Origin: Paracoccaceae bacterium
GTDB taxonomy: Bacteria; Pseudomonadota; Alphaproteobacteria; Rhodobacterales; Rhodobacteraceae
Reading direction: 5' to 3'
Assembly (NCBI GenBank): GCA_037968835.1
Contig: JBBKWG010000106.1
Location: forward strand, 7,419 to 71,418
Length of the DNA stretch: 64,000 nucleotides
Positions 21,825-33,073 of this stretch are shown here, piece by piece. The first letter of the stretch is position 1. Every line of letters begins with the position of its first letter. Both the position numbers and the translations under genes were made by a program. The notes below the pieces were generated by a model that was given only the letters and a program-made list of their open reading frames with translations, made no database searches and was not told the origin of the DNA.

Positions 21825-21845
21825 CAAATCGTTGACACAAAACGG

Positions 21846-21871
21846 GAACACGTGTAGAACATCCCCTGAAC
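21846..21871. promoter_or_regulatory. Alphaproteobacterial SOS operator: three GAAC tetramers spaced by 7 nt (two overlapping LexA boxes)
   Basis: GAACacgtgtaGAACatcccctGAAC, 44-69 nt upstream of the lexA ATG. It matches the GTTC-N7-GTTC / GAAC-N7-GAAC LexA motif defined in Rhodobacter and Rhizobium. Confidence 0.7.
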
Positions 21872-21914
21872 AGCCCGGCGCGTAACCGGGGCCGAGCAGA
21901 GGATGGCTTCATCA

Positions 21915-22607
21915 ATGTTGACCCGTAAACAACTCGATTTGTTGGAATTCATCCACAAGCGTGTGCAGCGCGATGGTGTCCCGCCTTCGTTCGACGAAAT
22001 GAAGGATGCGCTGGACCTTCGGTCCAAGTCCGGAATTCATCGCCTGATAACGGCGCTGGAAGAACGTGGGTTCATTCGACGGCTGGCCCACCGCGCGCGT
22101 GCAATCGAAATCGTAAAGCTACCCGAAGCTCTGGATTCCGGCGCGACGTTCGTTCCGAAAGTCATCGAAGGTGACAAAGGGACCAAACGTCCGCCCGCCA
22201 ATTCCATGACCGTTCAAGTACACGCCGTCGAATTGCCCGTCATGGGTCGAATTGCAGCCGGTGTGCCGATCGAAGCAATCAGCGAAGTCAGCCATACCGT
22301 GTCTGTTCCGGGACAGATGGTGGGTGGCAAGGGTCACCACTACGCCCTTGAAGTGAAAGGCGATTCGATGATCGACGTCGGCATTAACGACGGCGATATC
22401 GTTGTCATCCGCGAGACGAAAACCGCCAGCAACGGCGATATAGTGGTCGCACTCGTCAAAGATCAGGAGGCAACGCTCAAGCGCTTCCGTCAGTCCGGAA
22501 ATACTATCGCGCTTGAAGCCGCGAATCCGGCGTACGAGACCCGATTGTACCGCGACGATCAGGTCAAAGTGCAGGGACGGCTGGTCGGCCTCATCCGAAG
22601 CTACTGA
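21915..22607 (+). CDS. lexA: LexA repressor
   Basis: [13 protein letters not shown]...[20 protein letters not shown] (wHTH). The S24 peptidase part contains [17 protein letters not shown] and LKRF. The longest ORF starts at 21903. Confidence 0.9.
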
Positions 22608-26125: not shown

Positions 26126-26197
26126 AACGGCGTCCCGGGTGTATTACCGGATCGCGGAAACCGCGCCCGCGCTTCTTGCGCAGGCGGAACGACAGGG

Positions 26198-27499
26198 ATG
26201 AGAATGGCCGAAACAAACAAAACCGCGAAGCTGCGCTTTGAAGGCAAAGAGCTTGAACTTCCGATCCTGTCACCCTCTGCGGGGCCGGATGTGATCGACA
26301 TCAGAAAGCTATACGCACAGGGCGACGTTTTCACCTACGATCCCGGTTTCACCTCGACGGCGTCGTGCGACAGCACCATCACGTTCATTGACGGTGACAA
26401 GGGCGAGCTGCTCCACCGCGGCTATCCGATCGACCAACTTGCCGAGAAATCCCATTTCCTGGAAGTCTGCTATCTGTTGCTTTACGGCGATCTCCCATCT
26501 GCTGAACAACTGGAAGATTTCGAGGCCCGCGTCACCAATCACACGATGCTTCACGAACAAATGCAGTATTTTTTCCGTGGCTTCCGCCGCGACGCTCATC
26601 CAATGGCCGTTGTCGTCGGGGTCGTGGGCGCCATGTCCGCGTTCTATCATGACAGCACAGATGTCAGCGATCCCTGGCAGCGCGAAGTCGCGTCGATCCG
26701 TTTGATCGCGAAAATGCCGACCATTGCGGCGTGGGCCTACAAGTATTCGATCGGGCAGCCGTTCGTGTATCCACGCAACGACCTGGATTACGCGTCCAAC
26801 TTCCTGCGCATGTGTTTTTCGGTTCCCGCCGAGGAGTACGAGGTCAATCCGATCCTCGCCCGCGCCATGGACCGCATTTTCACGCTGCATGCTGACCACG
26901 AGCAGAATGCTTCGACCTCGACCGTGCGTCTGGCATCGTCGTCCGGCGCCAACCCGTTCGCGTGTATTGCCGCCGGCGTTGCGTGTCTTTGGGGGCCAGC
27001 CCATGGCGGCGCGAACCAGGCGTGTCTTGAGATGCTGCGCGAAATAGGCACGGTTGATCGCATTCCCGAGTATATCGAGCGGGCCAAGGACAAGAACGAT
27101 CCGTTCCGTCTGATGGGCTTCGGACACCGCGTCTACAAGAATTTCGACCCGCGCGCGAAGGTGATGAAACAGTCGGCGGACGAGGTTCTGGATTTGCTCG
27201 GAATCGAGAACAATCCAACGCTTCAGGTCGCCAAGGAGTTGGAGAAGATCGCGCTTCAGGACCCGTATTTCAAAGAAAAGAAGCTTTATCCGAACGTCGA
27301 TTTTTATTCGGGCATCATCCTCGATGCCATGGGCTTCCCGACGTCGATGTTCACCCCGGTTTTTGCTGTCGCACGGACCGTTGGGTGGGTCAGTCAGTGG
27401 AAAGAAATGATCGCTGACCCGCAGATGAAAATCGGCCGCCCACGCCAGCTTTATGTGGGCGCTACGCGTCGCGATTATGTAGATGTCGAAGACAGGTGA
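26198..27499 (+). CDS. gltA: Citrate synthase
   Basis: [14 protein letters not shown] signature. 433 aa. Confidence 0.9.
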
Positions 27500-27964: not shown

Positions 27965-28411
27965 ATGTCCGAGACCGACCTTATCAAGCTCTACTCGGGG
28001 CGAATTCTGGAACTGGCAGCGGACATTCCGCTGACTGATCGCCTTGATACGCCCGATGCTTCGGTGAAAAAGCGTTCGCCGTTGTGCGGTTCGACCGTCA
28101 CCGTCGATGTGCGCATGAATGATGGCCGGATTTCCGAGTTCGGGCAGGATGTGAAGGCCTGCGCTCTGGGTCAGGCTTCGGCGTCGGTACTTGGACGACA
28201 TGTCATCGGACGTACTCAAGCCGAGATCGGCCACGCCCGCGATCAGCTTCGTGCGATGTTGACCAAAGATGGTCCGGTGCCCGACGCGCCGTTCGACGAC
28301 TACGAAGTGCTTTTACCCGCGCGCGAGTTCCGCAATCGACACGCATCGATCCTGCTCGCTCTGGAAGCCACAGCAGAGGCTGCTGCCAAAGCTGAAGCCA
28401 GCGCCGCATAA
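27965..28411 (+). CDS. Iron-sulfur cluster assembly scaffold-like protein (NifU N-terminal/IscU fold)
   Basis: LYSGRILELAADIP...SPLCGSTVTV...KACALGQASASVL resembles IscU/SufU-type scaffolds. The third Cys is not obvious. Confidence 0.65.
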   Translation: MSETDLIKLYSGRILELAADIPLTDRLDTPDASVKKRSPLCGSTVTVDVRMNDGRISEFGQDVKACALGQASASVLGRHVIGRTQAEIGHARDQLRAMLTKDGPVPDAPFDDYEVLLPAREFRNRHASILLALEATAEAAAKAEASAA

Positions 28412-28430
28412 CTTCGTCACTGTCCTTAAC

Positions 28431-28467
28431 AAAAAAAACCGCCGCGCATTCAAAGGAATGGCGGCGG
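28431..28467 (-). terminator. Strong rho-independent terminator on the minus strand
   Basis: The minus strand reads CCGCCGC-CATTC-cttt-GAATG-c-GCGGCGG followed by T8. That is a 12-bp stem with one bulge. On the plus strand the run is A8 upstream of the stem, so the polarity is minus. Confidence 0.7.
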
Positions 28468-28598
28468 AAGTGGCGCATCTGGGAAAGCCCGGTCGCGACC
28501 CGGGACGGGGTCGCAGTCACGAGGGACAAAACTCTGGCTTCGCATCGAAGTTGGGGACAGGATGCGTGACCGGTGGTCCAGACCGCAGGCAGAAAAGG

Positions 28599-28718
28599 TC
28601 AGAGAAGTCCGGGAAGCGACAAGCCGACGACAAATATCACGATCAATGCAGAGACGCCGGCGAAATCCTGCGCCAACGTACCGGAACTGCGGGCAATCGT
28701 CTCTTTCAGCTCATTCAT
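28599..28718 (-). CDS. Hypothetical 39-aa tail-anchored membrane peptide, candidate SOS-regulated
   Basis: Own translation: MNELKETIARSSGTLAQDFAGVSALIVIFVVGLSLPGLL. AAGGA sits 8 nt upstream of the ATG. A LexA box lies ~85-100 nt upstream and the terminator ~130 nt downstream. Below the ORF-track cut-off. Confidence 0.35.
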   Translation of the reverse strand: MNELKETIARSSGTLAQDFAGVSALIVIFVVGLSLPGLL

Positions 28719-28801
28719 TTTATTGATCCTTCATTCGGGGTCAGACAGCGGGCGGGCTGTGTTGTTGCCCCTTTGTTCTCAAATTATGAACAGTCTGTAA
28801 A

Positions 28802-28816
28802 GAACTTTTTGAGAAC
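28802..28816. promoter_or_regulatory. LexA (SOS) box GAAC-N7-GAAC (GTTC-N7-GTTC on the minus strand)
   Basis: GAACtttttgaGAAC, read directly. It is embedded in a cluster of five GAAC/GTTC tetramers within 28775-28826, between the recG stop and the small minus-strand ORF. Confidence 0.5.
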
Positions 28817-28844
28817 ATTCGCGAACAAAATGGCATCAATCATG

Positions 28845-33073
<4,229 letters not shown>

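Follow-up and report, generated by a model that had tools for sequence, protein, structure and literature searches.

Small hydrophobic peptides of fewer than 40 aa, encoded behind LexA boxes on heavily structured mRNAs, are represented in Escherichia coli by TisB (with IstR-1) and DinQ (with AgrB). A different class of small regulators comprises the sRNAs derived from 3' UTRs, which have their terminator in common with an upstream coding gene and display C/U-rich motifs in loops and at the 5' end. In the alphaproteobacterium Caulobacter crescentus, SidA is a 29-aa inner membrane protein which is induced via LexA cleavage and blocks division through late divisome proteins (FtsW) (PMC4211646).

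The locus described here, detected in a window of 64,000 nucleotides (the whole stretch of DNA that was analysed) from a Paracoccaceae bacterium, resembles SidA in its single TM helix, LexA-type boxes and alphaproteobacterial host, but differs in that the peptide is longer (39-42 aa), its polar N-terminal half is conserved and its gene occupies a fixed position after recG. In addition, the small gene carries a conserved structured 3' UTR, and we know of no such element described for sidA. With TisB and DinQ it shares a small hydrophobic peptide gene with LexA-type boxes and a structured mRNA; in contrast to these, the 5' UTR is short and not conserved, the structure sits in the 3' UTR, and the gene is single-copy, syntenic family-wide and has no Pfam match. 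As in CpxQ and SroC of enterobacteria and SorX and CcsR1-4 of Rhodobacter sphaeroides, the structured RNA shares the terminator of the upstream gene, and C/U-rich motifs are likewise found in loops and in a single-stranded 5' end; however, the motif is CUGCC/GUCCC and not the CCUCCUCCC of CcsR, it belongs to no Rfam family, and LexA, not RpoHI/HII, is its putative regulator. An earlier note on this DNA had called the peptide SidA/TisB-like, a label that holds as a functional analogy only, as no sequence relationship to SidA, TisB or DinQ is detectable. In about 199 genomes of the class from families other than the GTDB family Rhodobacteraceae, a Caulobacter genome being assumed among them, the family profile gave no match. 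Judged from its sequence, the locus is a family-wide, unannotated unit belonging to an already known general type, the small membrane protein behind SOS boxes.

The unit lies on the minus strand between recG and a convergent NifU/SufU-like gene (Table 1). The earlier note had described this gap as 433 bp long and had placed in it a GTTC-N7-GTTC box within a cluster of five tetramers, a 39-codon ORF with an AAGGA Shine-Dalgarno and a 12-bp hairpin followed by T8 with minus-strand polarity only, and it had pointed to a triple motif in front of lexA in the same window. The size of the gap and all coordinates on the minus strand proved correct: the five tetramers start at 28826, 28816, 28805 and 28791 (GTTC) and at 28778 (GAAC), the one at 28791 not being conserved in relatives, and the lexA promoter does contain three phased GAAC repeats. 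The terminator is borne out by folding and by covariation among relatives, and its polarity by the plus strand, on which the hairpin is followed by GAAGTGG and no U-tract. Conservation, the coding substitution pattern and AlphaFold2 agree that the ORF is real and would encode a single-helix membrane peptide; both peptide and box are kept across Rhodobacteraceae, the box being part of a strongly conserved promoter/operator similar to the operators of lexA and recA in this family, and the segment between stop codon and terminator, which had been suggested as a possible RNA element, holds a conserved structured RNA with covariation.

Table 1. Coordinates of the small gene unit and of neighbouring features in the window.
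Feature	Position	Strand	Remarks
recG stop codon, TAA	28847-28845	minus	
Upstream GTTC half-site	28823-28826	minus	10 nt centre-to-centre before Box I; columns 87-94% conserved, unconstrained by the search pattern
Box I, GTTC-N7-GTTC, GTTCTCAAAAAGTTC	28802-28816	minus	abuts -35; canonical alphaproteobacterial LexA-type direct repeat
Putative -35, TTTACA (5/6 to TTGACA)	28796-28801	minus	read from the sequence; promoter role predicted
Putative extended -10, TGnGAACAA	28773-28781	minus	17 nt after -35; TG at 28781-28780, hexamer at 28778-28773; role predicted
Box II, GAAC-N7-CAAC, GAACAAAGGGGCAAC	28764-28778	minus	over -10 and predicted start; opposite to Box I
Predicted transcription start	near 28765	minus	
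Shine-Dalgarno, AAGGA	28727-28731	minus	8 nt before ATG
39-codon single-helix membrane protein gene	28599-28718	minus	conservation, codon-position entropy, AlphaFold2
Conserved structured RNA tail	28473-28594	minus	fold z=-4.0; covariance-model match; covariation
Long closing helix of the tail	28586-28568 paired with 28494-28473	minus	
Hairpin H1 of the tail	28566-28541	minus	loop CUGUCCCCAACUUC
3' inner hairpin of the tail	28514-28495	minus	loop CGUCCC
Rho-independent terminator	28431-28467	minus	12-bp hairpin with one bulge, 28467-28439; U8, 28438-28431
NifU/SufU-like gene	27965-28411	plus	
Phased GAAC repeats of the lexA promoter	21846-21871		three repeats
lexA	21903-22607	plus	

The 39-codon ORF, with the product MNELKETIARSSGTLAQDFAGVSALIVIFVVGLSLPGLL, is by all the marks of its conservation a real membrane protein gene. 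When the 433-bp spacer was compared by DNA similarity with 40 related genomes, with no pattern imposed, its first ~80 nt (the box region) were found to share 78-87% identity with 11 further genera of the family, and a homologous ORF of 39-42 codons with a Shine-Dalgarno follows the same promoter in 12/12 of the genera first found in this way; a GGAG/AGGA-type motif stands a few nt before the ATG in most of the relatives' ORFs. In the peptide alignment D18, L33 and P36 are invariant and K5, R10, G21 and L35 nearly so. The codon-position entropy of 1.20/0.79/1.57 (position 2 lower than 1, and 1 lower than 3) is a protein-coding signature, and the invariant D, G, L and P together with the conservative substitutions in the TM segment evidence purifying selection on the peptide.

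A profile search of 5.8 billion proteins, with an alignment query headed by a 42-aa relative and a cut-off of E<=0.01, retrieved 612 protein clusters, which are "hypothetical" wherever named, contain no Pfam domain and, where their source is named, belong to Rhodobacterales genera such as Ruegeria, Sulfitobacter, Loktanella, Rhodovulum and Phaeobacter. No significant match to Pfam, NCBIfam or PHROGs was obtained for 36 members of the family, and literature searches found no description of the small gene or of its RNA tail. Exactly one copy each is recognized by the family profile in 167 of the 201 genera of the GTDB family Rhodobacteraceae (sensu lato), and the small gene and the promoter motif occur once each in the window's own genome. 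The promoter pattern GTTC-N7-GTTCTTTAC-N18-GAACAA (44 nt, 19 specified bases) was also scanned against one genome per species, 185,579 species in all, giving at least 120 loci, nearly all of them in Rhodobacterales and including Paracoccus, Gemmobacter, Thioclava and Rhodobacter; three of the matches listed fall outside this order and are attributed to chance, about four being expected by chance. Among the matches listed, the ORF was recovered by a regular expression in 114 of 131 pattern-found loci, and the Rhodobacterales misses with enough downstream sequence are variant ORFs with variant C-termini; the C-terminal LP motif is not universal in the family. The regular expression fixed D, L and P, and the invariance of these residues is therefore taken from the other alignments and not from this set.

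With slightly better than even confidence it can be proposed that the unit is a LexA-controlled composite producing a membrane peptide, for which the late divisome would be the likeliest target, and a structured RNA tail. That this is a real gene under LexA-type control is, from the sequence evidence, quite probable; that the peptide is specifically a division inhibitor is a tentative assignment by analogy, to which we give somewhat less than even weight. According to this proposal, a self-contained, single-copy transcription unit specific to Rhodobacteraceae would be driven by a strong sigma-70-type promoter directly behind recG, which two opposed LexA-type operators would flank and overlap, Box I at the -35 and Box II at the -10/start. 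In undamaged cells LexA would keep the unit shut, and upon DNA damage the RecA-stimulated cleavage of LexA would release an mRNA of ~335 nt. The first product would be an inner membrane protein of 39 residues, tail-anchored by a single helix and with its basic N-terminal half in the cytoplasm, whose helix most likely packs against a membrane protein partner; by analogy with SidA, the late divisome (FtsW/FtsI/FtsN type) would be the most plausible target, an analogy pure and simple because there is no homology to SidA. The second product would be a structured RNA tail of ~120 nt that ends at the same terminator, displays CUGCC/GUCCC in its 5' single strand and loops, and may serve either in cis or as a regulatory RNA derived from the 3' UTR.

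Folding of the 171 nt that follow the stop codon yields a multi-branch structure and a terminal hairpin (dG -66.1, z=-4.0), and the tail has UUCUGCCUGCG as its 5' single strand. The 3' UTRs of 104 relatives measure 112-256 nt and follow a common plan, in which a single-stranded (U)UCUGCCUGCG and a long closing helix are accompanied by a hairpin with the loop CYGUCCCAA, an CUGCCUGUCCC element, often a GGGG-UUGCCUC-CCCC hairpin, and a terminator conserved in sequence. In per-sequence folds the long-range closing helix was recovered in 94/104 cases, and the motifs UGUCCC, CUGCCU and UUGCCU were ~79% unpaired vs 42% overall. The terminator hairpin is conserved and shows compensatory changes in 8/12 pairs across 98 relatives; a simple terminator scan found no terminator here, probably due to the bulge in the hairpin.

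From the raw MAFFT alignment of 98 tails, RNAalifold retrieved nothing but the terminator. A covariance model (R1) was built from a 19-sequence subfamily seed with the terminator excluded (132 positions, 26 pairs), and gave 46 matches in 100 sources at E<=0.01, all of them in the 3' UTR after the small ORF, with the window's own tail matching over the full model length (23.4 bits, E=0.0046); in whole-genome searches there was one match per genome, only at the small-gene locus. In the alignment of the 46 sequences, which was fitted to the covariance model, 89% of cells are paired vs 71% in shuffles (a value reached by 0/500) and 32-45% in slid controls. Changes on both sides occur in 25/26 pairs, as exemplified by a closing-helix pair that is AU in 20 sequences, GC in 18 and GU in 5, and one inner helix is weak (73% paired). 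Compensatory changes in the closing helix are also visible in the raw sequences (CUCAUG/CAUGAG, CUCGUG/CACGAG, CUCGCG/CGCGAG). No Rfam family matches the tail, the weak Ysr141 hits lying inside recG and far below threshold; this covariation-supported structure is new, and is a distinctive addition to the SOS-boxed small membrane protein kind.

Since the conservation of the tail equals that of the ORF and its covariation is strong, it may be asked whether the RNA is the main product, namely an SOS-induced 3'-UTR-derived sRNA with repeated CUGCC/GUCCC seeds, the ORF serving mainly to control the processing, stability or folding of the tail. The accessibility of the C/U-rich motifs noted above points in this direction, as does the long U-tract of the terminator, a feature typical of Hfq-type sRNAs. 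The distance from stop codon to CUGCC has a median of 5 nt and is 10 nt or less in 80/103 sequences, so that the base of the closing helix would be covered by the terminating ribosome; P1 starts inside the footprint of the latter, and a coupling between translation and tail folding is a speculative corollary. Nevertheless, the peptide itself is under purifying selection, which would be needless for a mere leader, and the single-genome scan with the tail seed yielded no conserved target: the seed has its best complement in the own genome at the start region of gltA (within the window), a match that is kept in 1/30 relatives and was discarded as a chance one. We regard an RNA-centred function as unlikely, and it is in any case compatible with the composite of peptide and RNA tail that we favour. 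A fully bifunctional SOS RNA, in which the LexA-controlled transcript would give both a peptide halting a membrane process (e.g., septation) and a trans-acting 3'-UTR sRNA, seems possible though rather improbable; processing would occur at the conserved UUCUGCC single strand, and the CUGCC/GUCCC loops would reprogramme the translation of other genes. If true, this would give the SOS response a post-transcriptional arm; none has to our knowledge been described in Alphaproteobacteria.

The control of the unit can be judged from its promoter, a strongly conserved stretch of ~65 nt in which GTTC-N6-GTTC-N7-GTTC runs over TTTACA and is followed by TGnGAACAA-N5-CAAC over the -10/start; the consensus of 127 aligned promoters is tttGTTCnCaaATGTTCTyAaAAAGTTCTTTACa-N11-ataTGAGAACAAAgnggCAACAaa. 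Columns unconstrained by the search pattern include the TG of the extended -10, kept in 99% of the 127 promoters, the CAAC of Box II (91-100% conserved) and the A5 tract that precedes TTTACA and resembles a proximal UP-element subsite (87-96%). The bare tetramer motif had to be rejected as evidence by itself, as it shows no excess over chance and no intergenic enrichment: the window contains 6 matches to GTTC-N7-GTTC vs 2.8 expected, a number reached in 7/100 shuffles, and of the 188 matches in the whole genome 32 (17%) fall outside crude gene calls vs 15% non-coding DNA. It is their conservation and context that lend the boxes significance, not the motif alone.

This context is provided by the lexA and recA promoters, which were extracted from ~29 relatives each. 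In the former, TTGACA-N17-TAGAAC is combined with GAACA-N6-GAACA(-N6-GAAC) over the -10, and a GAAC-containing -10 such as that predicted here therefore has a precedent. The recA promoters of relatives read TTGAAA-TGTTCTCnTTTTGaTC...CATAA...(G)AGAACAAGAGGCGAACA, so that a GTTC-N7-GnTC box in forward orientation occupies the spacer and a GAAC-N7-GAAC box in reverse orientation follows the -10. Two boxes facing opposite ways are likewise arranged in the small-gene promoter, whose Box II (GAGAACAAAGGGGCAACA) is very similar to GAGAACAAGAGGCGAACA, the recA operator of relatives. The tetramer, the spacing and the A-flank (GAACA) are those of alphaproteobacterial lexA/recA operators (GTTC-N7-GTTC), and the promoter lies between two oppositely oriented boxes, as is the case for recA in relatives; the small-gene unit departs from these operators in the CAAC end of Box II, in an extra GTTC at N6 and in an A-rich conserved spacer.

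A PWM of 21 columns was derived from 57 lexA/recA boxes of relatives, leaving out the window's own genome (training scores: minimum 12.2, median 24.2 bits). In this genome of 3.6 Mb, lexA ranked 1 (28.1 bits), recA 3 (26.1 bits), an imuA-like gene 5 (22.9 bits), uvrA 11 (18.8 bits), Box I 17 (16.3 bits), a ligase-associated DEXH helicase 19 (15.6 bits) and Box II 32 (13.3 bits). The score of Box I is below the median of bona fide sites, which counts against LexA, and Box II, which barely exceeds the training minimum, is the less convincing of the two candidate operators; its second half is almost never GAAC, C being present in 91% of promoters, and a constraint other than LexA, e.g., the transcription start, may lie behind its conservation. 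The spacer of Box I is A-rich and more conserved than usual LexA spacers, for which we assume a UP-element-like role, and the upstream GTTC pair is spaced N6, not N7.

These deviations, together with the unusual conservation of spacer and flanks and the lack of intergenic enrichment of the bare motif, could be accommodated if the GTTC/GAAC array were bound by a regulator other than LexA or were mere promoter architecture, the unit then falling outside the SOS response. However, GAACA-N6-GAACA also marks lexA, recA, uvrA and the imuA-like gene in the own genome and in its relatives, the opposed boxes copy the layout of the recA promoter, and in the 12 genera found without a pattern both tetramers of Box I are invariant and its spacer is variable. 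This reading is held to be improbable, and LexA is the best-supported candidate regulator of the small gene unit on the basis of operator similarity.

As to the peptide, AlphaFold2 modelling with a 36-sequence alignment predicts one continuous helix over residues 2-38 (mean pLDDT 83). Residues 1-17 are polar and residues 19-39 strongly apolar, with hydropathy rising to 2.7, and the conserved basic K5 and R10 suggest, by the positive-inside rule, an N-in topology with the N-terminal half in the cytoplasm. The TM helix, with the motif D18-x-x-G21...L33-x-L35-P36, is uniformly apolar, rich in small residues (A/G at several positions) and not amphipathic. Because of this composition, and of the invariance of G21, the segment would fit packing against a membrane partner better than pore formation. 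A relation to Flp/Fap pilins, prompted by D-x-x-G-A-x-A, was discarded: no Pfam hit at E<=1 was obtained for 36 members, and the processing motif G/XXXXEY is absent, G21 being followed by A/V-A-A-L with no Glu-Tyr.

A TisB/DinQ-type SOS toxin that would enter the inner membrane, collapse the proton-motive force and favour dormancy or persistence, its mRNA being kept translationally inert or stable by the tail, would agree with a small hydrophobic peptide behind LexA-type boxes, with the highly structured mRNA and with conserved polar residues at both ends of the helix (D18, and a His at position 34 in 65/107 sequences), but we consider it a poor candidate, given that the gene is single-copy, strictly syntenic and vertically inherited family-wide, unlike typical type I toxin loci, that the TM segment has the composition just described and no Pfam toxin family matches, that no promoter-like site was detected on the plus strand within 28000-29300 when both strands were scanned (a weak test for an antisense RNA), and that cis pairing of 5' UTR and tail finds no support in the comparison with permuted genomes (matched -24.5 vs permuted -24.8 kcal/mol, p=0.46). 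Every conserved block at the locus can be assigned to a feature of the minus strand.

Roseobacters and their relatives (Ruegeria, Sulfitobacter, Dinoroseobacter, Paracoccus, Rhodobacter) rank among the major marine bacteria and serve as models; we are aware of no small SOS effector or damage-induced division brake identified in this group, and our searches turned up none. The composite unit is a strong candidate for the damage-induced membrane effector of Rhodobacteraceae, as far as conservation and operator similarity can tell, and its presence in most genera of the family makes it a concrete and easily tested one. If the control by LexA holds, a single transcript would tie a small membrane protein, and possibly an RNA regulator as well, to the SOS response.

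Two further signals in the region were set aside. A 32-aa ORF at 28741-28839, which overlaps the operator, was taken as spurious, and a promoter-like site at 28744-28717 returned by the promoter scan was attributed to chance, as it overlaps the ATG and its sequence is kept only in the closest relative.

The gene table of a published LexA study in D. shibae shows a gap of 400 bp after recG (Dshi_1510), at NC_009952.1:1573042-1573442, without an annotated gene; the small gene unit, being unannotated there, would have been missed by gene-level transcriptomics. Among the matches listed, 124 of 131 loci have recG directly upstream; the distance between the end of recG and the motif has a median of 31 nt, and a SufU-like gene is usually found downstream in convergent orientation. 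In the window the first GTTC follows the recG stop after just 18 nt and no terminator was seen between them, so that expression independent of the SOS response could also arise by read-through from recG.

The design of the lexA promoter in the window was found again in the lexA promoters extracted from 29 relatives, and a -10 hexamer with GAAC thus appears to be the family norm for this gene. The recA promoters of the family (loci L165-L194, extracted from related genomes) have in common TTGAAA-TGTTCTCnTTTTGaTC..CATAA, with GAACAAGAGGCGAACA downstream, and as read from these shared motifs they carry two opposed LexA-type boxes, an arrangement reminiscent of recA in R. sphaeroides, where LexA reportedly exerts a dual action. 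In the organism's own genome, five high-scoring sites of the LexA matrix (built from relatives' lexA and recA boxes) were detected beyond the window: one upstream of an imuA-like gene, one upstream of a putative radical-SAM gene, one with a small SnoaL-like gene on one side and prfC on the other, and one ahead of a gene for a LysE-like transporter. Taken together, the five sites point to candidate members of the SOS regulon of this organism.

Feature coordinates
Feature	Location	Description	Basis
lexA promoter	window 21825-21902	TTGACA-N17-TAGAAC; GAACA-N6-GAACA-N6-GAAC over -10	sequence
LexA matrix site	C269:628-648		own genome
LexA matrix site	C144:684-704		own genome
LexA matrix site	C293:11343-11363		own genome
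LexA matrix site	C74:697-717		own genome
LexA matrix site	C65:5065-5085		own genome
gltA start region	window 26150-26200	CGCAGGCGGAA	
TTG ORF (-)	window 28741-28839	32 codons	

In Paracoccus (loci L023 and L112) the peptide is reduced to ~31 aa (M-S/T-REF..D..G...LWLPAILQA) and its polar N-terminal half is mostly lost; on this sequence comparison, the conserved core is the TM part. The TTG ORF, which overlaps the operator region, was judged spurious.

The 5' seed of the RNA tail, UUCUGCCUGCG, finds an 11-nt complementarity in the gltA start region, directly upstream of the citrate synthase gene and 2.4 kb from the unit. Since this complementarity was not conserved in 29 relatives, it was attributed to chance and gltA was rejected as a target. 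Within the recG coding sequence (loci L007-L012), Rfam gave weak hits below threshold to the Yersinia sRNA Ysr141; these probably stem from recG-derived sequence in the Rfam seed of Ysr141 and are unrelated to the unit.
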